From an uncultured Clostridia bacterium (lineage in GTDB: Bacteria > Bacillota > Clostridia > Oscillospirales > CAG-272), in the NCBI GenBank assembly GCA_947626065.1, contig CANQQT010000002.1:76197-140196 (forward strand): 64,000 nt of DNA, in the 5' to 3' direction. Positions 2,549-53,071 of this stretch are shown piece by piece. A program made the position numbers and the translations under genes. Position 1 is the first letter of the stretch. Each line of letters begins with the position of its first letter. Under the pieces are notes generated by a model. It saw only the letters and a program-made list of their open reading frames with translations. It made no database searches and was not told where the DNA came from.

Positions 2549-3589
2549 ATGAAAGAGGAACAACGAATGCAAGCAATAAGCAAAAACCGCACCTTTCTGA
2601 TGGGAATAGCGATAGCGCTTATCATGTTCTGCCACAATTCTCTGCAAATAAGCCAGCCTTACATAGCGCTCGGTTGGGTTGCGCTTTCAGATATTGCTCA
2701 ATGCGGCGTGGATATTTTTCTGTTTCTCTCAGGCTTCGGCTTGTTTTATTCCTATTCAAAGTCCCCGGAATATCTACCCTTTCTTAAAAAGAGGTTTTTA
2801 AGAATTGTACCTAAATATTTGATCGTAGTCATCCCGTATGCCACTCTCCTTTGCTTATTCAATTTTTGCTCTTTTCACGAAGCTTTAGACAGATATTCTC
2901 TGGTCGGCTTTTTTATAACAGGAAATCGCTCTCAGTGGTTTATCGCGGCCATTCTGGTTCTGTATCTGCTGTTCCCGTTGGTTTATAAGCTTGTTCAAAA
3001 AAACCTTCTATGGATGGGAGCCTCCGTTTTCATCTGGATTTTCTCGATATTGCTGAGGACTCTTTTGCCTTACAGCAATATCGACACGGTCTCCGAAATC
3101 TTCTTTATTCGGATTCCCATTTTTATTATAGGAACAAAATTCGGCCAAATAGCCCTCCGCGGGGAGGGCGACGGGCGGCTTGTTTCTTTCATGAAAACGC
3201 ATAGCGGAATTTTGACTCTCCTCTTTTTTGCGCTTTGCGCCGTGATTCGTTTGTTCGCGTTTGAATATGTGTGGGTTTATCTGCGCCTCGCATTCACACC
3301 TTTATCGCTTGCTTTGTGCTTCTTTCTCTGCAAAATCCGTGAAAAGCTGAATGAAAAAGTCGTTCGTTTCATAACAATGATGGGAGCCATAACTTTAGAA
3401 ATCTACCTGACGCACGAGAAGATACGGGACATTTGCGAGCTTATCTGTGAGAAAATGAAAATCCCCGGCGCATTTTTGCAAAGTCTTGTTGCCAACGTTG
3501 CCGCCATCGTAATGGCCATCGGCTTTTGCTATCTTTTCTCAAAGCTTTATGACAAAATTTTTCACTTGAAAAAACACTCCGTTGCTTAA
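2549..3589 (+). CDS. polytopic membrane acyltransferase (acyltransferase-3/OafA-like family, tentative)
   Basis: 346-aa ORF with many hydrophobic segments. The N-terminal RTFLMGIAIALIMFCHN resembles the acyltransferase-3 signature. Its AT-richer codon usage differs from neighbours. Confidence 0.6.
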   Translation: MKEEQRMQAISKNRTFLMGIAIALIMFCHNSLQISQPYIALGWVALSDIAQCGVDIFLFLSGFGLFYSYSKSPEYLPFLKKRFLRIVPKYLIVVIPYATLLCLFNFCSFHEALDRYSLVGFFITGNRSQWFIAAILVLYLLFPLVYKLVQKNLLWMGASVFIWIFSILLRTLLPYSNIDTVSEIFFIRIPIFIIGTKFGQIALRGEGDGRLVSFMKTHSGILTLLFFALCAVIRLFAFEYVWVYLRLAFTPLSLALCFFLCKIREKLNEKVVRFITMMGAITLEIYLTHEKIRDICELICEKMKIPGAFLQSLVANVAAIVMAIGFCYLFSKLYDKIFHLKKHSVA

Positions 3590-40309: not shown

Positions 40310-43300
40310 TCAAATTGAATTGGCCGACATTACAACATCTATCAAATTTTGCTTTTCTCGTTCGTAGTCGTTTATCCATGCTGTAGGATATATTCTATAT
40401 ATATTCCACCCATATTTTTGAGTAAGAACCTGCTCCGTCAGCCTCGTATACTCCCGCACGCTGTCAAAATCCGTGCGTCGCGGGTCATCCACTATGATAC
40501 CCAGAGCATAGCAGCCGTCTTCGTTCGCTTTGCGTATACCTATATTAATTTTACATTCAGAGCGGCCAATTTCCGTATCGTAAGCGACACCGATTTCATC
40601 AAGAACCCTGCATATATCTGTGACGAACGGATTATATGTTTCCCCGCTAACGACTTTTTGGACTCTCGTGAACATCTGTGCGTACTCAAGAAAATTGCAT
40701 AGCATTTGCGCCCCTGCTTTGTTCTCGCTTGGAGCAGAACTGGTTTTCATTGCCATGTTTAACTCAGACGATTTCAATGTGGAGACAACGATCATTCTGT
40801 GCTTGGCTCGTGTCACAGCGACATTTATTCTTTTCATGCCCGAGAGCAAACGAATACGCCCCAGATAAGGAAGCGTAAACTTCCCATGGCTATCCGGGCT
40901 GTAGCATATACTAATTATAGTAATATCCCGTTCATCGCCTTGCACCGTATCTAAATTGCAAAATATAAGCGGTTCTTCTTCATGCATTTTTTCCCACTGC
41001 TCAATCGCTGCTTTTTTGTCGGCTCTTTGTTTAAAAACCTCCCAACGCGACTCTATCTCATACGCCTGTGCATTGCTAAAAGCCACCACGCCGATGGAGA
41101 ACGCCTTGCGTTCAGGATGAGTCATTTCTTCATATATCAGCTCCACAATCCGATCTGCTTCGCCGGAGTTTATGTGTGCCCCGTTCTTGCCTGCGACATA
41201 GCACGTGGAAGGCGTATATTGCACGGGCACATAGTCTATTCCGTCATTAGGATTTCTCTTTGCTGAAGGAAAACTAATGAGATTATACTCCATTTCCTTG
41301 TTAGAAAACGCTATCAATGCCTCATCGCAGCTCCTATAGTGCCATGCCAACGAAATGGATGCATCACCTAATGCTTTGTCAGCGGAGGCAAGCAAAGAGT
41401 TTTCAATATTTGCTTCTTCTTCAAAGTACTGCTCATCATCGTCCTGCATATTTTCTCCTGCTCTAAAGAAGTCGCAAGGAGGCAACTGTTTGCTATCACC
41501 CGCAATAATAATTTGCTTTCCTCTTACAATTGACGCAAGAGCATCCTCTGTAAAAATTTGCGAAGCCTCATCAAAAATAACCAAATCAAATTGCAAACTC
41601 ACATCAATATATTGACTCACATTCAAAGGCGACATCATAAAACAAGGTCTTATGTGTTTTATGTACTCCCAATTCTCCAGTATTGTTTGTTTGATTGAGT
41701 AGTTTGTCTTTGATTGAAGCTTGGGGTACTCGCCTTTTGCGCCATTAGCTTTGCCGGATGCCGCACGCCGCAAATACATATTAAGCGTTTCATACAGGCG
41801 TTTCGCTCCTGTATTCAGCATACGCTTATCTGCCTCGGCATAGCTTTCCATAAGCTTTTCATGTTCCGCTCTTGAGAAATCCCGTATACAATCAAGATGG
41901 TTTGTATCAATGAATTCCTTTACAATCTGTTGATAATAAGATCGAAATAAGCGCGCATTTGCTGTTTCGAAATCGCTTTCGTTACTGTCAATCAACTCAT
42001 CAAGAACAGATCTCCAGCCCGCCTGCTCTATTTTTTCCACTATCATCACCAAACGATACCAATCAGCAAGCATTGCTTGATGATGGATAATGGCCTCAGA
42101 TAAAGAAGTATATGCAAGAAAATACTTGCGCGGGGACTCCATAAAAGCGCCAAATTGATTTCCTAACGACTGTTCATCCGAAAGTGCTTTTGTAAGCAGC
42201 CCTTCTAACGTTTGCAAATGATTGATTGTCCCCGAATATTGTAACGGAGCGAAACGCAGAGACCAATCTGTAACACACCTCAAATCCAATATTTGATTAT
42301 TATGCTCGAATAGGATTGACAAGACAGCATTTAACGATTTGATCAAGTCGTCCCAATCGGCTTCGCTTTCCGGTTCATATCCTAATATCTCAAGGTCTTC
42401 ACTTTCTTGTCGTTCGTTACGCGATTTTAATTGCAAATACTCTCTATATTGTTCCAATTGTTTCAAAGCATTACTGGTTGATTTATAATTGTGTTTATGG
42501 GGAGGCGTATTAAAGCACGCAAGAACCGCTGCTTTCCATTCCTTGTACTTTTTACCATGCCTCATAAAAGCGCTCTGGTATTCTTCTGACTCAATTTTTG
42601 CCTGTTTTATGTCAAGAGCACAATATTTTATGTAATCAATCGCAGACGAATATTCTTTCCCTTCGTGGTTCTTTAATCTTGTTATTGTTTTTTTTCTTGC
42701 TTTCGCCAATTTTAAAATGTCATTTATTTTCCTTTCGCTGGGATTATTGAGAATTTCTCCCACAATTTTTTCCGACAGCTTCGGCATCTGTGACCAAAGG
42801 TGGAGCATCTTCTCACACACTTGCATATCAGAGAAGTGATATCCAACCTTCCAACCATCGTTCGCTAAATCAGAAACCACCTTTGTTATTGTGTCGTACA
42901 CGGCCTTATATTCAGAAGCAATTTTCAACAACGTGGAACCGGAATCCCCTTTACACCCATATAAGGGGTGCTTTCTATAGTCAAGCACACTGCCGCAGAC
43001 TTTAATAGCGGTATAATATTGACGAATCAAGTCACGTAACTCCGTGAACTCTACGCTGTCCTTGGGGATTTTCGGTGTTTCATTTAGCGCTTTGAATGCA
43101 GAAAATTGTGCCATATCCTGCAATAGCCTCAAATAGTTGCGATCCCCATACTCTCCGCGGATTTGCTCCATGAACTTTTTTATTTGCTCGTATCGATGTT
43201 CCTCATCCGCAATTAGTTGATCGTCATAACCCCCAACAGGAGTATAGCTCACCAAGCATCTATTAAGCTCCGCAACAAAAGGATTCCGGCTCACCGCTCC

Positions 43301-45109
43301 GCTTCGCTTTTTAAAAGAGCCAAAATCAAGAATAAAGTCAGTGAGCTTTTTGTCGCCCCCAACATTGCATTTTAACAAGTTGTCAATAATAACCGATCTT
43401 GCCGAGGTTTTTTCCGTAACAAACAAAACCGTTTTTCCCTCGCCAAGCGCAGAAGATATAATATTTGTTATTGTTTGACTTTTTCCGGATCCGGGAGGGC
43501 CCTGTAAGATAAACGACCTCCCCTCTTGTGAAGCTTTAATCACTTCTTCCTGTGATGAATCCGCATCTAACAACACATATTTTGTTTTATGCCTTTGTTG
43601 GAGAGAGGGAACAGAAATCTCAACATTTTCATCGCCACACAAGCGTCTGATAATCGGATGCCGCAAATATATGTCCTGATTGGTTTCAATATCATGTTGT
43701 AATTGCAGTTTTTGATAATGAAACAAGCCAATACCCAGTCCAGGATCAATTTCCCAGTCCTTGGTGATTTCAAAAATTCTATCCCCGCCGTTTTTGAAGG
43801 TTTGTTCAATTAAAGAGAAGTACACGCCTATGTTTTTTACGTCAAGCGATGGCAATACTATGGAACATGTTTGGGAATAGGCAGCAAGCATTTGTATCAG
43901 GGTCTTGTTTACCTCGAAAGTCGATTCTGCCGACGGATCCACCTCAAAATAATATTGTCCTTTTGCCTTATCTGTTCCCAAATTAACCGGGCATAATAAA
44001 ATCGGAGAATTATAAACTGTGCCGTTTGTATCTTTCCATTTTAAAAAACCGCACGCAAGATATAAAACATGCAGCCCGAAATTCCGTTCCATGTTTTTGG
44101 CTTTGTTTAAAATGGTTCTTGCGGCCTCGTTGGTACTCCCCTCGTTTACAACACTAACCAATTCATCTGAAGCATAACTTTTTAATGCACTCTGTGATAT
44201 AATTGGCGAAGATTCCAAATCAATGGCTTTTTTGCATTTTGGGCAGATAAGTGCCGACTTTTTCAACTCGTCTATCGTGAGTTTTTTTCCGCAAGAGCAG
44301 ATATACGCATCATTAGGCAAGCACATCAGTCTTTCCTTCAGCGGCATCATGCTCTTTCTATTATGAGTATTGCCCGCATCACATATCGGACACTCAGAAG
44401 CCAATTGCGTTTTTTTTGCGCCAAAATCATAGGACTGGAATTCCACGCGCCCACACAATTTGCATTTGTAAATCATCTGGGGGTGAAGCTTGCTCCACCC
44501 CGTGATATACATTCTTGAGTTTTTTTTGCTGATTTGTCGCATGGTCGTCAGAGTATCTCCGCTGAGCAACCCTATAGTCGCATTTTTTACAGGACGAAAA
44601 TGCACAAGTTGATTTGTACGCGAAAAATCGAGCAATCGCAAGCCAAATTTCTTTAATTGCTTTTTTTGCTGATCAGCCTCCTCCAGTACGGAGACCGTAC
44701 TATCAAAATTTATCAGTTCATTCTCATCAAAAGATTCACAGTCCGAATCGTCAATCGCCACGTTGAAAAAAACTGCTGCGGCCAAGCATATGGCAAAAAG
44801 ATAAGCCGAAAATCGATATTCATCTATCCGAACAGTAAACGAGAGCAAGCTTGCAAGCTCATATAACTCCCCACTGCCCCCTGTGAATTTTTGTTCCTGA
44901 ACAAACTTTGCCAATATTTTATAGGCAGGCGCCAATAGCTGCACCAATACTTTTCCATATCCGTATGACGTGCTTTGACGCAAATAGTCCCCAATAATTG
45001 AAGACGATCGATCATACCAATCCGGAACACTGACGTTCATTGTTCTTACTTTTTCACAATAAACTCGAAATTCTTTTTTATCCATTGCAAAAGCTTTTAG
45101 ACCTCGCAC
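40310..45109 (-). CDS. Zn-ribbon/DUF4011 + SF1 (Upf1/Dna2-like) helicase + C-terminal REase-like/DUF3320 protein
   Basis: LQGPPGSGKSQTI (Walker A), VIFDEASQ (Walker B), IIAGDSKQLPP, NVAVTRAKHRM. N-terminal CKLCG..CPICD and CSCG..CPKCK ribbons and LHVLYLACGFLKW (DUF4011-like). C-terminal GRSECKINIGI...ALGIIVDD...YGWNIYRIYPTAW (PD-(D/E)xK-like). 1599 aa. The start is uncertain (GTG 45109 or ATG 45085). Confidence 0.88.
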   Translation of the reverse strand: MRGLKAFAMDKKEFRVYCEKVRTMNVSVPDWYDRSSSIIGDYLRQSTSYGYGKVLVQLLAPAYKILAKFVQEQKFTGGSGELYELASLLSFTVRIDEYRFSAYLFAICLAAAVFFNVAIDDSDCESFDENELINFDSTVSVLEEADQQKKQLKKFGLRLLDFSRTNQLVHFRPVKNATIGLLSGDTLTTMRQISKKNSRMYITGWSKLHPQMIYKCKLCGRVEFQSYDFGAKKTQLASECPICDAGNTHNRKSMMPLKERLMCLPNDAYICSCGKKLTIDELKKSALICPKCKKAIDLESSPIISQSALKSYASDELVSVVNEGSTNEAARTILNKAKNMERNFGLHVLYLACGFLKWKDTNGTVYNSPILLCPVNLGTDKAKGQYYFEVDPSAESTFEVNKTLIQMLAAYSQTCSIVLPSLDVKNIGVYFSLIEQTFKNGGDRIFEITKDWEIDPGLGIGLFHYQKLQLQHDIETNQDIYLRHPIIRRLCGDENVEISVPSLQQRHKTKYVLLDADSSQEEVIKASQEGRSFILQGPPGSGKSQTITNIISSALGEGKTVLFVTEKTSARSVIIDNLLKCNVGGDKKLTDFILDFGSFKKRSGAVSRNPFVAELNRCLVSYTPVGGYDDQLIADEEHRYEQIKKFMEQIRGEYGDRNYLRLLQDMAQFSAFKALNETPKIPKDSVEFTELRDLIRQYYTAIKVCGSVLDYRKHPLYGCKGDSGSTLLKIASEYKAVYDTITKVVSDLANDGWKVGYHFSDMQVCEKMLHLWSQMPKLSEKIVGEILNNPSERKINDILKLAKARKKTITRLKNHEGKEYSSAIDYIKYCALDIKQAKIESEEYQSAFMRHGKKYKEWKAAVLACFNTPPHKHNYKSTSNALKQLEQYREYLQLKSRNERQESEDLEILGYEPESEADWDDLIKSLNAVLSILFEHNNQILDLRCVTDWSLRFAPLQYSGTINHLQTLEGLLTKALSDEQSLGNQFGAFMESPRKYFLAYTSLSEAIIHHQAMLADWYRLVMIVEKIEQAGWRSVLDELIDSNESDFETANARLFRSYYQQIVKEFIDTNHLDCIRDFSRAEHEKLMESYAEADKRMLNTGAKRLYETLNMYLRRAASGKANGAKGEYPKLQSKTNYSIKQTILENWEYIKHIRPCFMMSPLNVSQYIDVSLQFDLVIFDEASQIFTEDALASIVRGKQIIIAGDSKQLPPCDFFRAGENMQDDDEQYFEEEANIENSLLASADKALGDASISLAWHYRSCDEALIAFSNKEMEYNLISFPSAKRNPNDGIDYVPVQYTPSTCYVAGKNGAHINSGEADRIVELIYEEMTHPERKAFSIGVVAFSNAQAYEIESRWEVFKQRADKKAAIEQWEKMHEEEPLIFCNLDTVQGDERDITIISICYSPDSHGKFTLPYLGRIRLLSGMKRINVAVTRAKHRMIVVSTLKSSELNMAMKTSSAPSENKAGAQMLCNFLEYAQMFTRVQKVVSGETYNPFVTDICRVLDEIGVAYDTEIGRSECKINIGIRKANEDGCYALGIIVDDPRRTDFDSVREYTRLTEQVLTQKYGWNIYRIYPTAWINDYEREKQNLIDVVMSANSI

Positions 45110-45124
45110 TTAATAAAATGCCAA

Positions 45125-46405
45125 TTAACTTTTCGACCCTTTCGCCACAAAGTCGGGGGAACCGCCTATGCCAGTCTCGTCTTTCGATTGATGTGAACGG
45201 GAAAAGGAGGAAAAACCGTCTAGGCCAGTACCATTTTCAGATGAAGATGCCCGTGGTTTAAATTCAGAAAGTTTATCAAAATCAACAGGCGCCGGTTTTG
45301 GCTTTGGAGGAACGGGGGAGGTAGCGCCGCTCGTGTTACTCGTTCCTTGCCCTTTTTGGGATCCTCCGTTAAGAATGTCATCTAAAACGCTTACCCACTC
45401 ATCTGGAGTGGGTCTACTTTTAAATTCCGTGAGTGGATTCTTAAACGCCTGTCTAAACCGCTCCTTTAATCTGTTGTCAAGCCCATTCCAAATTTTTATA
45501 ACCGTGTTCAGCTCGCCACGCTTTTTTTGTTGTTTGGGCTTTGAAGCGTCGGCGTCTTTGTAAAGATCATCTATATTATTGCGACGATCCTTTTCATCAA
45601 AAATAAATACCGACCAAGCCTCATCTATATCATCTTCGTCCGCAAGTTCTTTAACGCCGAACATGTCTTGACATGCGGGGGAAGAATACATGATCTTTCC
45701 ATGATAGGGCGATGGCAAAAGGTTATTTATCAATATGCGGAAAATTAAATTTGCCAAAGCATATGCATCCGCATTCTTTCCTGCCTTCGCATATCCAAAA
45801 GCAACCTCCGGCGCCATAAAGAATCCGGTTCCTAACACAAACGAAAGCCCGTCTTGTTGTATTTCTTGATCGCTGGCAACGTTTTCGCAATCAACGACAT
45901 ACAGCCAACCGGTTTTGCTGTCAAACATAAAATTTCCCCAATTGATATCCGTATAACATCCGCCAAGTTTATTTATGATTTCAATAGACAGAGCGATCTG
46001 TCTTGCAAGCCCAAGCTTCTCCTCCAGAGGCATTTTCTGAATAATCCCGTTATTCTCGTTGATCATGTAATTCAGCGTTTGACCACCGGCAAGTTCCATG
46101 ATGTATAATGTTTCTCCTTTGTATGAACACGAGGAAAGAGGAAATGCATGATTAATATTATACCCTCTTGCCAGATTATCCGCTCTTTGGCTGGTGTTCT
46201 CATCGATGAGTATACGTATATTTTTGCGCTTCATCTCTCTCCTTCCTTCGTTTTCATCAACAAGAACCTTCATGGCGTAGCATTGATTATCGGTCAAATT
46301 TTTGACTTTATAAACCGCTCCTTGCCCACCCGCGCCAATCGGCGAAATTATTTCATAGGTAATTTTATTCTCAAAGGTTATCCGGGTTCCCGCTGCAAAG
46401 TCCAT
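45125..46405 (-). CDS. Ser/Thr protein kinase with low-complexity C-terminal tail
   Basis: GAGGQGAVYKV (G-loop), YAMKV (VAIK-like), YTDINWGNFMF (catalytic loop D..N), FMAPEV (APE). AGAGGTG ribosome-binding site. Confidence 0.88.
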   Translation of the reverse strand: MDFAAGTRITFENKITYEIISPIGAGGQGAVYKVKNLTDNQCYAMKVLVDENEGRREMKRKNIRILIDENTSQRADNLARGYNINHAFPLSSCSYKGETLYIMELAGGQTLNYMINENNGIIQKMPLEEKLGLARQIALSIEIINKLGGCYTDINWGNFMFDSKTGWLYVVDCENVASDQEIQQDGLSFVLGTGFFMAPEVAFGYAKAGKNADAYALANLIFRILINNLLPSPYHGKIMYSSPACQDMFGVKELADEDDIDEAWSVFIFDEKDRRNNIDDLYKDADASKPKQQKKRGELNTVIKIWNGLDNRLKERFRQAFKNPLTEFKSRPTPDEWVSVLDDILNGGSQKGQGTSNTSGATSPVPPKPKPAPVDFDKLSEFKPRASSSENGTGLDGFSSFSRSHQSKDETGIGGSPDFVAKGSKS

Positions 46406-46435
46406 AACATAGCACCTCTTTTTTCAAAATTATTT

Positions 46436-48139
46436 TTAACGGATATGCACATACGCAATTGAACTATCGTCGCCACTGCCAAAATTTGTTTCGTTATAAT
46501 CGGAGCATTTTTGAGCTATTTGTTCGAGCTTTTGGCATCGCTCATCAAACGAAAGCTCCGAAATATCTTGAACGAACGCGTCAACAGACCCCACCGTTTC
46601 CCCTACAGCATTTGTTACTCCATCGGAAGAAATAAAGATATCACTCACTTCATGAAAACCAAAGAACGATAGCTGCAAGGCGGTCGAATCATTTTTTAAA
46701 TGCGGCACGGTCAACACTTCATGTCTCAGTACGCCGGAGATTCCGTCGTTCAGAAGGAATCCTCCGCTTGCCCCCGTATTTGTTGCGCGCCGCTTTTTAA
46801 CATAAAAACTACCGTCTCCAAGGGCACCGCAGACAATAAACTTTGCGCACCCGAAAGCAAACTGCAAGGTTGTGGAAAACGCGCTCACATCGACATCTTC
46901 AGTACGCTTAAATTCCTGCGAATTGCGAATTGCTTCTTCCCATTCTTTGTAGAAATCATTGACCAACAAAAATTTTATGTAATACATCAAATCCGCATAT
47001 TCGCTATCCGAAATTTTTTTATAGCCGAATGCTCTCTTCTTGTCAACAATTAATTTATGATTCGTTAAAAACGTTTCGATGCACTTTGACAAACATAGAG
47101 TCGCTTCTTTTGACCCTAATGCAGAATGAATACAGCTTCCCACGCCATCCGCGACAGCAACAAACCAATTATCCTCATCGTATTTTTTTATTAAGGAATA
47201 ATCTTCGCACCCGTTGTGCCCGGGCTTATCCAATCTTCCTTCATAAGATACGGCAAACAATTGAGCGCGATCGCAGGTTTCCTTTCGTGAAGCTTCACGT
47301 ACAAGAAAACTTTTGCTGCGGAATTTTTTCAAAGTATCTTCCCAATAACCAATGTTGAAAGATCCGTAATTTTTAGTAAATACAAGCCATATGAGTTCAA
47401 AAATTTTAGCGCTGCCGACGCCGTTCAAATTTCCCATCGCCGCTTGAATGTTCTCTCTTTTTTGTTCGCGTAAAATTTTATCGACCGTTTTTTCAAGTTC
47501 CGATGCAACGCCTCTTCCGCGAATGTCTTTGACAACCCTTATCATGTTTCCGGCTTCGCATTCAAATCTTCCCATTGGCGTTTTATCATAATCAGCAAAT
47601 GCATTTTTCCACACGTCCTGTGGATATTTGCCGCCGGACATGATATAGAAAAGCAAATATGCCAAGAGATAATTATTGCTATCCGACACGAAGGAAGGGA
47701 TATCTTGATATTTAAATTCCTTCATAAATGGTAGCTTTTCATAAAAAATTTGGTTGTTTAACTGCGGAAAAATATTTTCTTCGTTCTCATTCAAATAATC
47801 GCATACCCGCAAAGCCAAGATTATCCGCTGATCATAACCCGTTTCCTCCAAACAAACATCTGTTTCCCTCTCTGAAATATCGGCCGCATCGCTTTTCTCC
47901 TCATCGCAAAGTCCCGCTTGCGCAGACGCCTCCCCTTCGCGAAGCTTGATCTCTTGCAAAACAGCAACGTCGCTTTTCAATGGTACTTCTACTTTTGAAG
48001 CTTTTTGTTCTTCTTTATGCATATTAACCGGTGCTTTCTCTGTGTTTTCCATTCTATATACCTCATTAGAAGCTGACAATAAAAGGGTTATGAGAAGAGC
48101 CATTATGCCGAAAAGCATCTTCCAACTGCCCCAACACAC
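46436..48139 (-). CDS. PP2C-family Ser/Thr phosphatase with ~290-aa unknown N-terminal region
   Basis: CEDYSL, VAVADGVGS, SSDGVTN and GSGDDSSIA are PP2C metal-site motifs in the C-terminal half. The start is ambiguous: TTG 48139, ATG 48118 (gives a hydrophobic anchor MLFGIMALLITLLL), or ATG 48052 (best ribosome-binding site, GAGGT). Confidence 0.85.
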   Translation of the reverse strand: MCWGSWKMLFGIMALLITLLLSASNEVYRMENTEKAPVNMHKEEQKASKVEVPLKSDVAVLQEIKLREGEASAQAGLCDEEKSDAADISERETDVCLEETGYDQRIILALRVCDYLNENEENIFPQLNNQIFYEKLPFMKEFKYQDIPSFVSDSNNYLLAYLLFYIMSGGKYPQDVWKNAFADYDKTPMGRFECEAGNMIRVVKDIRGRGVASELEKTVDKILREQKRENIQAAMGNLNGVGSAKIFELIWLVFTKNYGSFNIGYWEDTLKKFRSKSFLVREASRKETCDRAQLFAVSYEGRLDKPGHNGCEDYSLIKKYDEDNWFVAVADGVGSCIHSALGSKEATLCLSKCIETFLTNHKLIVDKKRAFGYKKISDSEYADLMYYIKFLLVNDFYKEWEEAIRNSQEFKRTEDVDVSAFSTTLQFAFGCAKFIVCGALGDGSFYVKKRRATNTGASGGFLLNDGISGVLRHEVLTVPHLKNDSTALQLSFFGFHEVSDIFISSDGVTNAVGETVGSVDAFVQDISELSFDERCQKLEQIAQKCSDYNETNFGSGDDSSIAYVHIR

Positions 48140-48245
48140 AACTGTATGATGATAAATCTATCAAAAACAGGTAGCTCGAACGCAAACCCACTATAAAGAA
48201 CAGGGAGAATCGCAGAACGACTCTCCCCACTCCACGTTAAATTAC

Positions 48246-48893
48246 TTAGCCAACCGAAAGATTAAGCGTAGCCGATTTGAGAATATTGATAAAATTCTCC
48301 GTATATTGATCAGAGCAATCATAGTACGCCGAAATACCTTTGCCCTCCATTTTAGCCGAAACTTTCCCAAATTTTTTAAGAGAATTACGGCCTTCTTCGT
48401 TGACATTCATTCCGATAGCGACGCGAAGAGCACGGCGGAAGGCTTCCACTTCTTTGCTACCGCCTTTTACAGCGCATTCCATAACCTCATCAAATGTCGG
48501 ATTGGTACCGTTGGGCTCACCGTCCGAAATTAAAATGATGGCAGGAGGTAAGGCGTCGGGATCTTTATCCCCTCGGGCACCACCTTGAATATCCTGGATA
48601 ACAGCCTGAATTGCCGCCCCGGTAGGAGTCCCACCAGCAAATGACTCCGCGGTTAAAGGTGCCCACTGTTGGGACAAGCTTTCCAAATCAGTCTCCGGAA
48701 TAATCACCTTTATGGTATCGGCACCGGCAAAGCCCAAAACCTCAAACTTGATCTTCATATTGGCGTCTTTATCGCGGATGATATCTGGTACGACCTTTTT
48801 CATAACCTCCTCCATGGCGGTATTAACTGCATCACCCCGCTTTCCATACATCGAGCCCGAGCAATCGATCAAAAAATACACTGTCTTGTTCAT
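48246..48893 (-). CDS. TerY-like vWA protein, paralog 1
   Basis: MNKTVYFLIDCSGSMYGKRGDAVN (DxSxS MIDAS) and ILISDGEPNG; 215 aa, the size and layout of TerY. Confidence 0.88.
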   Translation of the reverse strand: MNKTVYFLIDCSGSMYGKRGDAVNTAMEEVMKKVVPDIIRDKDANMKIKFEVLGFAGADTIKVIIPETDLESLSQQWAPLTAESFAGGTPTGAAIQAVIQDIQGGARGDKDPDALPPAIILISDGEPNGTNPTFDEVMECAVKGGSKEVEAFRRALRVAIGMNVNEEGRNSLKKFGKVSAKMEGKGISAYYDCSDQYTENFINILKSATLNLSVG

Positions 48894-48955
48894 AATTTTT
48901 TCTCCTTAAGATTTTAGGCGTCTCCGCCTTAATTTACAATTTAATTTTTAAACGA
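48853..48955. repeat. 103-bp perfect direct repeat, copy A (first 41 nt of vWA paralog 1 plus 62 nt of 5' leader)
   Basis: Read base by base and identical to 49747-49849: gagcccgagcaatcgatcaaaaaatacactgtcttgttcataattttttctccttaagattttaggcgtctccgccttaatttacaatttaatttttaaacga. Confidence 0.9.
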
Positions 48956-49036
48956 TGCAAAAATGCATCTTAATCGCAAGCACCCGTTTACCAGTCCGTA
49001 AAACTCGGATGAAACGAAGGCGGATCTATGATTTCG

Positions 49037-49139
49037 CACATTGAGTCACGAAGCGCATCCGATTGCGCAGGGAGATCGTAGTATGCCGAAAGTCCAAAAT
49101 TCTCCATTGCTTTGGGAATCCTTCCATTTTTTAAGAGAG
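49037..49139 (-). pseudogene. degenerate duplicate of the 3' coding end of a TerY-like vWA gene
   Basis: cacattgagtcacgaagcgcatccgattgcgcagggagatcgtagtatgccgaaag...ttttttaagagag aligns with 49156-49278 inside paralog 2. The paralog 2 stop codon (49131-49133) falls inside this duplicate. Confidence 0.6.
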
Positions 49140-49787
49140 CGGAAGTATAACTCGGCACATTAACTCAAAAAGCGCATCTGATTCAAAAAGCGCATCTGAT
49201 TGCGCGGGAAAATCATAGTATGCCGAAAAGCCACATTCCTCCATTACTTTTGAAATCCTTCCAAATTTTTTAAGAGAGTTGTAGCCTTTTTCGTCGACAT
49301 TTATTCCAATAGCAACACGGTCTGCGCGGCGGAAGCTAATCACTTCTTTGATACTGCCTTTTACTGCGCATTCCATAACCTCGTCATATGTTGGATTGCT
49401 GCCAGTGTGTTCCCCGGACGAAATCAAAATAATGAAAGGAGGTAAGGCGTCGGGGTCTATATCTCCGTGCAAACCGCATTCAATATCCTCGATAACCGCT
49501 TGAATTGCCCGTCCGGTAGGAGCCCCACCGGCAAATGACTCATCAGACAAACGGTACCATCTTTGAGGGAAGCTGTCCAAATCAAATTTCGGAATTATCA
49601 CCTTTACGGAATCGGCGCCAGCAAAGCCCAAGACCACAAACTGAATCTTCAAATCGGAAAGTTTCTCCGCTAGGATTTCCGGCACGACCGTTCTCATGAC
49701 CTCTTCCATTAGGGCATTAACCACATCTCCGCGCTTCCCGCGCATTGAGCCCGAGCAATCGATCAAAAAATACACTGTCTTGTTCAT
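49131..49787 (-). CDS. TerY-like vWA protein, paralog 2 (remodelled C-terminus)
   Basis: MNKTVYFLIDCSGSMRGKRGDVVN and ILISSGEHTG. The C-terminus SDALFESDALFELMCRVILPLS arises from a 16-bp internal duplication and read-through into duplicated sequence. Confidence 0.82.
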   Translation of the reverse strand: MNKTVYFLIDCSGSMRGKRGDVVNALMEEVMRTVVPEILAEKLSDLKIQFVVLGFAGADSVKVIIPKFDLDSFPQRWYRLSDESFAGGAPTGRAIQAVIEDIECGLHGDIDPDALPPFIILISSGEHTGSNPTYDEVMECAVKGSIKEVISFRRADRVAIGINVDEKGYNSLKKFGRISKVMEECGFSAYYDFPAQSDALFESDALFELMCRVILPLS

Positions 49788-49849
49788 AATTTTTTCTCCT
49801 TAAGATTTTAGGCGTCTCCGCCTTAATTTACAATTTAATTTTTAAACGA
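49747..49849. repeat. 103-bp perfect direct repeat, copy B (start of vWA paralog 2 plus leader)
   Basis: Identical to 48853-48955. Confidence 0.9.
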
Positions 49850-49897
49850 CAGCAAAAACCTCTTATTCACGATCCTCAGTCTGCCAACACGTCAAAC

Positions 49898-50551
49898 TCA
49901 ATACGGCGAAATGGGGCAAATGAGAGGCACTATGATGTGTGCCATCGATTCAAAAAGCGCCTCTGATTGCGCGGGAAAATCATAGTATGCCGAAAAGCCA
50001 CGTTCCTCCATTACTTTTGAAAGCCTTCCAAATTTCTTAAGAGAATTACGACCTTCTTCGCTGACATTCATTCCGATAGCAACACGAATAGCTCTGCGGA
50101 ATTGGGGTACTTCTTTGCTACCACCTTTTACAGCGCATTCCATAACCTCATCATATGTTGGATTGGTACCGGTGGGTTCCCCATCCGAAATTAAGATAAT
50201 GACAGGAGGTAAGGCGTCGGGGTCTATATCCCCGCGCACGCCGCCTTCAATATCCTGGATAACAGCCTGAATTGCCGCCCCGGTAGGAGCACCGCCGACA
50301 AACACATCGCCGGATATAGGCTTCCACAGCAAGGGGAACTCTTCCACAGAAGCCCGGACTTGCTCCTTTATGGTTCTGTCACCGGAAAAACCCCACACTT
50401 TAAACTTGACATTCAAATCGGGATTTTTCTGTTCAAGGATTTCCGGCACAACTCTTTTCACGACTCCATCCATTAGGGCATTAACCGCTTCTCCACGCCC
50501 CCCGCACATTGCGTCAGAGCAATCAATCAAAAAATAAACGGGTTTGTTCAT
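49898..50551 (-). CDS. TerY-like vWA protein, paralog 3
   Basis: MNKPVYFLIDCSDAMCGGRGEAVN (MIDAS variant DxSxA) and ILISDGEPTG; 217 aa. AAGGAGG ribosome-binding site. Confidence 0.85.
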   Translation of the reverse strand: MNKPVYFLIDCSDAMCGGRGEAVNALMDGVVKRVVPEILEQKNPDLNVKFKVWGFSGDRTIKEQVRASVEEFPLLWKPISGDVFVGGAPTGAAIQAVIQDIEGGVRGDIDPDALPPVIILISDGEPTGTNPTYDEVMECAVKGGSKEVPQFRRAIRVAIGMNVSEEGRNSLKKFGRLSKVMEERGFSAYYDFPAQSEALFESMAHIIVPLICPISPY

Positions 50552-50571
50552 AAGGCTTGTCCTCCTTTGTA

Positions 50572-50615
50572 TTTTGCATGGTAGGGTACTTCTGTCTGAA
50601 TTCTACCATGCAAAA
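50572..50615 (-). promoter_or_regulatory. 13-bp perfect inverted repeat (hairpin or operator) in the 5' leader of vWA paralog 3
   Basis: ttttgcatggtag (50572-50584) and ctaccatgcaaaa (50603-50615) are exact reverse complements separated by 18 nt. They lie between the promoter and the ribosome-binding site. Confidence 0.6.
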
Positions 50616-50670
50616 CGGATTTTAAGGTTCTTATTGGCGCAATCTGTCCATTTATTTGCTTCTGTAGCTC

Positions 50671-50699
50671 ATTATAACACATTAAAATCAAAAAATCAA
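50671..50699 (-). promoter_or_regulatory. strong sigma70-type promoter (extended -10) for the vWA-PP2C-kinase-helicase genes
   Basis: Minus strand reads TTGATT (50699-50694), a 17-nt spacer ending TGT, then TATAAT (50676-50671). Confidence 0.6.
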
Positions 50700-50774
50700 G
50701 CACTTATTGCGCTTTTTTTAAAAAATTTGCAATCTTTTAGGATCTATTGTCTGTTTTGGACATCTTTTGGCGGA

Positions 50775-50962
50775 TATCCCCCCCGTAACACCGGCCAACA
50801 AGCTACGGGGCGAGAACCCAAAGATGGGGCCCTCGGCACGGGAGCTCTTGCAGTATCGCTCTCTCCAGTTGCCGAAGGCCCCGCCAAACGTTGTGTGCGT
50901 CGCCAATCGCTCCCCCTTATTCTGTGCTTCTCCAAGGCATGGAACTCGTCGGGGGGGGGATA
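50775..50962. ncRNA. candidate structured RNA: GC-rich ~190-nt element closed by a 10-bp helix (strand undetermined)
   Basis: TATCCCCCCC (50775-50784) pairs with GGGGGGGATA (50953-50962). An internal 12-bp helix joins 50826-50837 and 50871-50882 (one mismatch) and encloses the hairpin 50840-50845/50858-50863. A further pairing joins 50794-50803 and 50926-50938. No protein-like ORF is present. Confidence 0.3.
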
Positions 50963-51269
50963 AAGTGTGCGCTAAAATCAGGCATTCGAATACTATTTTC
51001 TGCAAATTTTTATCATGGAATCTACTTTTTTGGACCGTCTGCCAGAGGACTTCCGGCGTGTGCATTTCTCAGAACGAGACATTCGCCCGCCGTGCCATTG
51101 ATCGCTTTCGGATGGAGCTGACCATCCTTGTCCGCTTGACACTTGGGGAATTCATCGCATTCATAATGCGCGACGGATATCTCGCTCAGAAAGCCTTTAA
51201 GCAAAAATTGACCGCCGGTAGACGCCTCCCGGCGGTACATAACCGCCATCTGCAAACGGCCATTGCACT

Positions 51270-52304
51270 TTACGGGATTTGATTTTCCAGATACTCAAAG
51301 CATGTTTTCCATTCAGAATATGTGGTGCGGCATCCTATATCCTCATGCAATCCATTTACAAAAGTCTGAATCATGCATTCTTGGATCTGTATAGGAAGTG
51401 CGTTCCATTTTTGGGTCTGAATGAAATAGTCTTCATTTTTTTCAACGGCGTATACGGCATTTCGTTTGTCCGTAGGATGAAAGGCAAACAGCGCCTCAGA
51501 GCCGTATATTATCGGCGCAGCGTCGTCGACCGTCAAATCATTGTCGGTCATATAGCGCTCGGTGGCGGGACCGTCCATGGGATAGGAACCGATGAAAAGC
51601 CGGAAGAAAAAGGTTGCAATGGAAAAATAATCGGACAACCGGTTTTGTTTCCCCGTTATGTAAACCTCCGGAGCAGTATAACCTGTTTTCCCGAGGAGAA
51701 AAAGGGGCTCATCATACCTCACAACACAGATATCATCGGCGTCAACGATAAAAAAGTCTCCGTCGTCCGGGTTAATATATACCTTGTCCTCGTTGAGGTC
51801 ATTGTAGCGCAAGCCCGCCAGGTTAAGCACCTCAAATAACTCCGCAAAATTTTTGCAAAACTTATACAAAATCTTCGCGTCCGGATAATCCTCAGGATGA
51901 TTGATGATCTGTCTCGCCGGCTTATATTTGTCCGAGTCGATTTTATTCATGATGTAGCCAAATCCGCCGCTATTAAGCTCAACCAAATCAAGCGGAAGGG
52001 CATAAAAATGCAGCCAAAGCTTTTCATTCATGTGATGGTTTTCAAGCGAGTCGATCCACACCATGATATTTCTAATATTTCTTTTAATGGTTTCATGACG
52101 GACGCGAAGGTCCGGCGTTGTCACATATTCCCTGAACCAATACGAGTTGCTGTCGCCGTCTTTCGTGGCGTGGAACATTGCGGCAGCGCCGCCGGCGTCC
52201 CGCTTTTCGCCGATAACGTATTCTTTTCCGGAGACCGATCGAACACGGCGGCCGATCATTTGGCCTGATTCGTCAAGTACAGGTGTAAAATCTTCAGGTT
52301 TCAT
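51270..52304 (-). CDS. divergent protein-kinase-fold protein
   Basis: LRYNDLNEDKVYI (catalytic-loop-like D-x4-N region), FIVDADDI (DFG-like) and GYTAPEVY (APE motif); 344 aa. Confidence 0.75.
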   Translation of the reverse strand: MKPEDFTPVLDESGQMIGRRVRSVSGKEYVIGEKRDAGGAAAMFHATKDGDSNSYWFREYVTTPDLRVRHETIKRNIRNIMVWIDSLENHHMNEKLWLHFYALPLDLVELNSGGFGYIMNKIDSDKYKPARQIINHPEDYPDAKILYKFCKNFAELFEVLNLAGLRYNDLNEDKVYINPDDGDFFIVDADDICVVRYDEPLFLLGKTGYTAPEVYITGKQNRLSDYFSIATFFFRLFIGSYPMDGPATERYMTDNDLTVDDAAPIIYGSEALFAFHPTDKRNAVYAVEKNEDYFIQTQKWNALPIQIQECMIQTFVNGLHEDIGCRTTYSEWKTCFEYLENQIP

Positions 52305-52365: not shown

Positions 52366-53071
52366 TTCTTTTTCGATTTTTTTCAAATTTTTGCAATAAT
52401 TTTTGATATTCTACTTGCAATGCAACATGATCATTTTGAGTTATTTGTCCTTTTCTTCTGCCTTTTTAGTGAAGTTACTTAAACTTTAAACAATATCGCC
52501 GGAATGCTTTGGCCCTTTTTCCCGCTTTTGATGCATCAATGATTGCGACAAACCCTTTGCACCGGAAGCACCCTTTGGCATCGTTTCGCTTTCCCACCGC
52601 CTTTTTTCTGTTCGAAAAAGCCGTGTGCGCACGCACTTTTGTCGAATGCCGTTTTGAAAATTGTAAATTTTCCGGCACATATTCTTTACCTGTCTTGACA
52701 AAGCGGAGCGAAAGAAATACAATATACTCGCGAGTTACCAAATCAAGGAGCCGGGACAAAAGGGGCGTCAAGGCGACGAAGAAGACAGAAGGTGTAGGGA
52801 TGCAACCGAGCTGCCGGATAAGGAAGCGATTCGAGCGTATCGGGCGGAAGCGGAGGCTCCTTTATGAATTTAACTTTTTCTTCCGGACAAAAAGAAAGCC
52901 GGAGGCAAGTACGTCTCGACCTTCGGCAAGGTAAAACGAATCGACGATTATGAACGTGTTATTCAATTTACGGACAGAAACTCCGTTCCTATGGACGATA
53001 TTCTTGCGCTGGACGGTGAGGTATTCGATATCCTGAAACAAGACGCGGAAGACATATAAAGGAGAAACGAA

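Follow-up and report, generated by a model that had tools for sequence, protein, structure and literature searches.

The GC-rich block at 50775-50962 of the window (by which we mean the whole 64-kb stretch of DNA that was analysed) is probably filler without a function, sitting at a recombination junction within a defence island. The original prediction had offered two readings of it, as a regulatory or guide-like RNA of the island or as a relic of foreign or chromosomal DNA, and it is the relic that fits: the 718-bp gap containing the block starts at the truncated end of a TerY-P-type kinase gene, the 3′ third of which is missing; the gap appears to drift, and has gained insertions and deletions that are not multiples of three. 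While the relic reading agrees with this evidence, BLAST did not identify a source sequence for the GC-rich DNA in any collection searched, so that the capture of a fragment is something that we infer.

The window belongs to a 2.4-Mb draft genome in 105 contigs with a GC content of 56.5%, which falls to 40-47% over the island, extending from about 39 kb to about 53 kb. On the minus strand, the island reads as a 344-aa gene (52304-51270), the 718-bp gap, three vWA genes, a PP2C phosphatase, a Ser/Thr kinase, and a 1599-aa DUF4011/SF1 helicase with an MTES_1575 nuclease domain. The vWA x3 - PP2C - kinase - DUF4011/MTES_1575 helicase-nuclease cassette spans 40310-50551. The features discussed below are collected in Table 1.

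Table 1. Features in and around the gap, in window coordinates
Feature	Coordinates	Strand	Basis or remarks
vWA paralog 3, first gene of the cassette	49898..50551	-	Pfam, PADLOC, NCBIfam
Gap, non-coding, 718 bp (vWA paralog 3 start at 50551 to kinase stop at 51270)	50552..51269		Read as the junction of two defence modules
Predicted sigma-70-type promoter of the vWA operon (TTGATT, 17 nt, TG-TATAAT)	50671..50699	-	Promoter scan
Longer imperfect inverted repeat, AT-rich left arm, starting with AAAAATTTGCA and running into the C-run	50721..50774		Alignment score
171-aa ORF, called as a protein in the public record	50767..51282	+	Protein collection: only from this genome
GC-rich block (the finding itself; ~62% GC; non-coding, single-copy)	50775..50962		Composition, Rfam, protein-family and homolog searches
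Closing inverted repeat, left arm TATCCCCCCC	50775..50784		C7 run at 50778-50784
Central hairpin, 13-nt arms (12/13 paired) around the 6-bp inner hairpin	50826..50882		Predicted folds and inverted-repeat scan
Closing inverted repeat, right arm GGGGGGGATA	50953..50962		G9 run at 50951-50959
Longer imperfect inverted repeat, AT-rich right arm, ending with TGCAAATTTTT	50963..51011		Inverted-repeat scan, alignment score
Terminator-like hairpin ACCGCCGGGAG/CTACCGGCGGT (11-nt arms, 4-nt loop), then CAATTTTTG	51203..51236	-	Inverted-repeat scan and reading
Truncated TerY-P-type Ser/Thr kinase gene, 344 aa	51270..52304	-	Homolog comparison

Composition, folding and strain variation of the block

Measured in 100-nt windows, GC content reaches 0.59-0.63 across 50750-50949, as compared with 0.25-0.41 on the left flank and 0.43-0.50 on the right, in full agreement with the earlier description of a GC-rich block in the 718-bp gap. 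The 10-bp helix said to close the block corresponds to a perfect 10-nt inverted repeat formed by TATCCCCCCC (50775-50784) and GGGGGGGATA (50953-50962), the central helix was recovered with 12 of 13 positions paired between GGGGCCCTCGGCA (50826-50838) and TGCCGAAGGCCCC (50870-50882), and the inner 6-bp hairpin is present in both predicted folds, on the plus as well as on the minus strand. A fourth pairing, drawn between 50794-50803 and 50926-50938, did not hold up: it is weak (4+3 bp by eye) and is missing from the minimum-energy folds. Homopolymer runs of at least seven C or G are rare, numbering about 94 in the 2.4-Mb genome, and therefore complementary C and G runs 170 nt apart are unlikely to be a product of chance; the other ATC5+...G5+AT pairs in the genome are all found in ordinary coding DNA.

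The overall fold of the block, nevertheless, does not appear exceptional. Its z-score against dinucleotide shuffles is -2.0 for the plus strand and -2.1 for the minus strand, and 14% (plus) and 6.6% (minus) of 1304 GC-matched random 198-nt windows from the same genome fold at least as well. The cmscan-type comparison with Rfam that had been proposed as a check matched no family in a search extended to E = 10; the only hit overlapping the block was to RAGATH-8 (9.8 bits against a gathering score of 86.7, E = 6.3), and the search as a whole gave nothing but noise (E = 3.6-7.6). Promoter scanning predicted no promoter that would transcribe the block as its own unit, and no promoter or terminator at its ends on either strand. 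No intrinsic terminator was detected by the scan within 50775-50962 on either strand, nor does a T-run follow the closing or the central stem. The stretch is absent from the RNA runs that were searched, while DNA runs labelled rabbit gut metagenome do contain it.

A second rabbit-gut study (runs X3, X5 and X10) supplied contigs of a sister strain, which shows the same arrangement at ~98% identity. The block differs from that of the sister strain by four substitutions (50785 G>A, 50883, 50898 and 50948 G>A) and by three indels, namely a reduction of C7 to C6, one C added after 50911, and the loss of 5 nt at 50956 in the G run, so that the runs measure C6 versus C7 and G4-5 versus G9, as read from assembled contigs of one study and one close variant, in which homopolymer lengths may be misassembled. 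Over the whole gap there are 15 substitutions (2.1%) and four indels (-1, +1, -5, +1), and the only indel listed for the adjacent kinase gene is +3. Block, gap and flanks have all diverged by 2.1%, as has the 2.1-kb contig as a whole; from these comparisons, the gap appears to drift at the rate of the relaxed kinase gene described below. When the sister-strain changes are applied to the window sequence, all reading frames of the gap are scrambled, and the predicted fold of the plus strand loses its closing helix (-67.4 versus -80.8 kcal/mol). The central hairpin (57 nt) is identical in all three variants seen, and hence is uninformative on covariation; these variants are 98-99% identical, with changes that lie next to the helices or away from them. 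No homologs of the block were found in the genome, in its relatives, or in plasmid, phage, viral and metagenome searches.

The regulatory or guide-like RNA of the original prediction is thus left unsupported, given the absence of an Rfam match, the seemingly ordinary stability, the lack of a promoter of its own, and the shorter closing helix of the sister strain. Such an RNA could be a 3′-UTR or read-through element of the kinase stub, or else an independent small RNA that regulates or guides the defence cassette, and the existence of nested helices, the z-scores of about -2 on both strands, the invariance of the 57-nt central hairpin in three variants, and the intergenic site directly upstream of the defence operon would all be in line with it. 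Yet no Rfam family was matched down to E = 10, 7-14% of the GC-matched random windows fold equally well, neither strand has a predicted promoter or terminator at the ends, the strand itself is not assignable, the block accumulates substitutions at the rate of its flanks while its closing helix has been shortened in the sister strain, related cassettes offer no counterpart, and none of the RNA runs searched contains the stretch. We consider an RNA of either kind very improbable.

Coding potential and the search for related sequences

The block has no coding capacity. The earlier statement that all six frames look non-protein-like is correct in substance, in that no homolog was found and the frames are shifted in the sister strain, but it does not hold to the letter, as four of the six frames are open across the block and a 171-aa ORF has been called there. 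A phmmer comparison of this ORF with 1.84 billion representative proteins matched only the ORF itself, and the public record probably contains a spurious, or false, gene call. Searches of the gap ORFs against Pfam, PHROGs, PADLOC and NCBIfam gave no family match, and an 88-aa stretch of a minus-strand frame yielded one chance-level match in 301 genomes of the family. No homology was found in any frame, and no frame is kept between strains across the four indels given above.

Descent of the block from a decayed fragment of a protein-coding gene, contributed by a higher-GC donor, would agree with the four open frames, with the codon-like periodicity of GC content at 51040-51269 (0.57/0.44/0.62 by codon position), and with a 271-nt contig from another organism in which 30 of 35 nt (86%) are identical to 50822-50856 and the flanks are open in the same frame. 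The block proper, however, shows no codon periodicity (0.61/0.55/0.65), its plus-strand ORF has no homolog among the 1.84 billion representatives, no frame matches a family, tblastx against its own genome came back empty, and the minus-strand 88-aa stretch found nothing in the 301 genomes beyond the chance-level match; we regard this origin as unlikely. The 35-nt match, which reads MGPSARELLQY in frame, was rejected as a lead to a coding origin, being near chance (estimated expectation 0.05-0.5) and unsupported by protein search.

At the DNA level, the block is present as a single copy in its own genome according to blastn, short-word blastn and tblastx, and the gap as a whole finds no other match there with blastn and tblastx. 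Its core was found neither in 60 relatives, 400 further genomes of the order and 300 related genomes (~760) nor, by DNA searches, in plasmid and phage records, and none of its exact 22- and 25-mers occurs in the genome, viral and metagenome collections. The recurrence beside vWA, kinase and PP2C genes, for which a BLASTN search had been suggested, was not observed: there is neither a second copy nor a counterpart near related cassettes.

A degenerate pattern derived from the central hairpin retrieved 23 loci. They were rejected, since each is either coding DNA or an unrelated hairpin of the GC-rich terminator type (GGGGCCTTCGGCCCC), and their resemblance to the block ends with the 12-mers searched for. 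Separately, we noted tandem GC-rich hairpins composed of GGGGCCTTCGGCCCC and a longer second hairpin, bracketed by poly-G/poly-C, at loci L025 and L029 (both Candidatus Pelethousia gallinarum), L034 and L035. One genome carries them at two loci or more. Their sequences are not related to that of the block, and they have the look of a small repeat family or of terminators that work in both directions. Another metagenome contig (JACLAC010024054.1; L045, ~100-300) carries a palindrome with GC-rich arms of ~100 nt and a short AT-rich centre, which might mark a hairpin end or a replication origin, or might result from faulty assembly.

The truncated kinase gene and the junction

The TerY-P triad, made up of vWA, PP2C phosphatase and kinase proteins, occurs in association with restriction-like systems and has proved to work as an anti-phage module; its kinase is fused at the C-terminus to a zinc ribbon or an OB-fold (PMC11090510). 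The 344-aa kinase bordering the gap has 26 homologs in a large protein collection, all of them 383-551 aa in length; the more similar of these, with 52-57% identity across 94-99% of the query, measure 459-504 aa. At best, identity is 57% over 99% of the query, and the homologs run on for another ~140 aa: they align from residue 1 to ~340, and then continue into a CxxC...CxxC zinc ribbon, a proline-rich linker, and a domain of ~100 aa. The window protein ends four codons past the aligned kinase part, without the zinc ribbon, the linker and the C-terminal domain, and the gene at 51270-52304 thus encodes neither of the C-terminal modules, zinc ribbon or OB-fold, that mark a TerY-P kinase. Because its homologs carry the published architecture of kinase plus zinc ribbon while the window protein stops early, it represents a truncated TerY-P kinase, and no trace of the missing C-terminus was found in the gap by tblastn.

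The homologous loci have the order vWA - PP2C - kinase - two unknown genes - HSP70-like, with the next gene located within ~30 bp of the kinase. As they carry further genes of the module after the kinase, the 51270-52304 stub is all that is left of a different module; and, with the kinase truncated, its C-terminus absent from the gap, and genes of homologous loci spaced only ~30 bp apart, the gap must begin at a rearrangement breakpoint. Full-length homologs of the truncated kinase were also seen on three metagenome contigs (L009, L010 and L011) within a conserved gene string, Transglut_core - VirD4/TraG-like ATPase - two unknown genes - Tox-HNH-HHH - vWA (x1-2) - PP2C - kinase-ZnR - two unknown genes (~440 aa) - HSP70/MreB-like, which has the appearance of a TerY-P module within a larger conflict system that is possibly linked to secretion.

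The stub keeps its own promoter and ribosome-binding site, and the terminator-like hairpin lies 35 nt past its stop codon; in the sister strain, this hairpin has acquired one substitution in each arm (51215 and 51229), both of which disrupt pairing and weaken it. Between the strains, 22 codons of the truncated kinase have changed, 17 of them non-synonymously and 5 synonymously. Judging from these counts, the gene appears to be under relaxed (or diversifying) selection, and its divergence of 2-3% would be close to the neutral yardstick. The recognition of the kinase-like gene as a truncated TerY-P kinase under apparently relaxed constraint changes the reading of the island.

On the other side of the gap, the cassette consisting of vWA (x1-3), PP2C (567-904 aa), kinase and DUF4011/MTES_1575 genes recurs in several gut assemblies, and the related cassettes L012-L016 preserve the gene order. 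Its helicase gives large matches to PDC-S37 and Hhe of PADLOC and to ProA and Hhe of NCBIfam, all below curated cut-offs; since the scores are far under those of NCBIfam, the protein is a relative of NCBIfam ProA and Hhe and a member of neither. Related cassettes contain one to two vWA genes, and their upstream neighbours vary from an HTH gene to radical-SAM genes and unrelated ORFs. No similarity was found between the gap and the DNA upstream of the related cassettes in L012-L016, and this combination of varied neighbours, none resembling the gap, indicates that the gap joins two modules of separate origin. The promoter of the vWA operon is situated downstream of the GC-rich block on the coding strand.

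Taken as filler, the block could have formed in the following way. A TerY-P-type module would have lost everything after codon ~340 of its kinase gene, so that the surviving stub (51270-52304) came to abut ~580 bp of unrelated DNA (51269 down to ~50700), beyond which lies the promoter of the independently mobile cassette of three vWA genes, PP2C, kinase and DUF4011 helicase-nuclease. The GC-rich 190 bp, as a part of this unrelated DNA, were probably captured from a higher-GC source outside the collections searched, presumably in the same event that truncated the kinase, and would be devoid of function. The helices would then be inherited or chance palindromes, supplemented by two slippage-prone homopolymer runs, in a block that may now be drifting neutrally.

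Several short sequences near the promoters deserve mention on their own account. The leader of vWA paralog 3 contains a perfect 13-nt inverted repeat, TTTTGCATGGTAG / CTACCATGCAAAA, at 50572-50615; the sister strain has the same left arm, and the nearest change (50595 T>C) affects the loop. The word ATTGCAAA(A/T)TTT, found at 50721-50733, 51001-51011 and 52382-52394, occurs ~20 nt upstream of the -35 boxes of the vWA-operon and truncated-kinase promoters, and a similar word, ATTGCAATC, is positioned just upstream of the promoter of a related cassette (L013, ~3315-3330); on sequence grounds, ATTGCAAA(A/T)TTT is a possible shared operator or UP-like element. Of 400 genomes of the order, more than 25 contain an exact or near-exact match to the AT-rich 19-mer TTTCTGCAAATTTTTATCA (50997-51015), which resembles the consensus of the CodY box, AATTTTCWGAAAATT, at 13 of 15 positions. 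This 19-mer could be a widespread regulatory word, or simply a chance product of AT-rich DNA.

The longer inverted repeat and comparison with known systems

The closing repeat extends weakly into the AT-rich flanks as a longer, imperfect one. Its outer ends, AAAAATTTGCA (50721-50731) and TGCAAATTTTT (51001-51011), are 100% complementary over 11 nt and lie 43 nt outward of the C run and 38 nt outward of the G run, respectively, with patchy similarity in between, making up a palindromic unit of ~290 bp. Alignment of the entire arms (50721-50784 and 50953-51011) gives a score of 36, in comparison with 15.9 +/- 3.0 for shuffled sequences (maximum 26), and only 6 of 6330 windows of the same geometry elsewhere in the 64-kb window reach it; once the homopolymer block is removed, the score of the arms drops to 27, which is only moderately unusual for a background of 18 +/- 3.8. 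The longer repeat suggests a discrete palindromic unit, and not a random fragment.

A second peculiarity was provided by run X9, which comes from another study and bears another organism label. It holds a 166-nt contig that matches 50798-50957 with a single change (99% identity) at a contig depth of 2.8, and nothing else from 59 kb of the window. The contig may represent the core in another genomic context, or, equally, X9 may be a very-low-coverage sample of the same species, which surfaced because this stretch was used for the search. Since the isolated contig hints at a shared or mobile core, we also entertained the idea that the 160-190-nt core is a discrete palindromic element that moves horizontally, or else the gene of a small structured RNA, 99% identical between unrelated gut bacteria, which has landed upstream of the TerY-P/helicase operon, and we view it as improbable.

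The same observations bear on a mobile origin of the whole palindrome, in the form of a vestigial or solo MITE-like element of ~50721-51011 with a GC-rich core, inserted upstream of the vWA promoter. It would be endowed with terminal inverted repeats (10 nt perfect, ~64 nt imperfect, the extension being moderately significant), in which the perfect 11-nt and 10-nt blocks have matching spacing (43 versus 38 nt); the composition of its core is foreign to the island, and the X9 run possesses the core only, at 99% identity. Nevertheless, the unit exists in one copy in the genome and is lacking from the ~760 related genomes and from public collections, no target-site duplication could be seen on reading the flanks, no partner transposase was identified, the arms alone rise to only 27 against 18 +/- 3.8, and X9 may be a low-coverage sample of the same species. 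An element of this kind is, in our opinion, a rather unlikely explanation.

A DNA-level switch would have to tune the vWA promoter either as an inverton, by inversion between AAAAATTTGCA and TGCAAATTTTT, or through variation in the length of the C and G runs. The perfect 11-bp inverted repeat does bracket ~290 bp and starts ~20 bp upstream of the -35 box, and the homopolymer runs do differ between strains (C7 versus C6, G9 versus G4-5), but no promoter is predicted within the segment in either orientation, as would be needed for an inverton, no invertase was noticed beside it, and the homopolymer runs lie 80-260 bp from the promoter and not inside it. Joints with a change of strand were not found in runs X1, X3, X5 and X9-X12, as represented by assembled contigs, which drop minority forms. 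A switch thus appears most improbable.

Returning to filler DNA, counting against it are the complementary C7 and G9 runs, 170 nt apart and unlikely by chance, the longer inverted repeat, the X9 contig, and the fact that a donor was not found. As found, the block matters little in itself, and serves to illustrate that defence islands are built of cassettes and stubs, with junction DNA of odd composition that may resemble structured RNA. If it were a mobile or RNA element, it would constitute a new small element tied to the defence cassettes of gut Clostridia.

Among known systems, the terminator hairpins of gut Clostridia of the GGGGCCTTCGGCCCC type (L025, L029, L034 and L035) have the arm words GGGGCCYTCGGC / GCCGARGGCCCC in common with the block and are surrounded by poly-G/poly-C runs, but there is no homology past the 12-mers of the search pattern, and the arms of the block pair across 31 nt without a T-run on either strand. 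Retron msr-msd RNA resembles it in being a unit of ~190 nt with flanking inverted repeats and a stable internal hairpin in a defence island; in contrast to retrons, however, the block has no reverse transcriptase next to it or anywhere in the genome, and a retron or group II intron remnant was ruled out on the grounds that RVT_1 (PF00078), which does match control genomes, found nothing in the whole genome. MITEs and small palindromic repeats include the Correia, RUP and ERIC/IRU types. The block is similar to them in its size of ~190-290 bp, its terminal inverted repeats, its long hairpin, and its intergenic position by a promoter, whereas their defining multicopy spread is absent: there is one copy here, with no target-site duplication or related transposase seen. 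From the debris expected at defence-island junctions, the block differs in having a GC content sharply above both of its neighbours and symmetrical ends (C7/G9 and the weak longer repeat), which plain debris need not have; in agreement with such debris, it lies between a truncated TerY-P-type kinase and an intact mobile cassette, is non-coding and without homologs, and has accumulated indels, along with substitutions at the rate of its neighbour.
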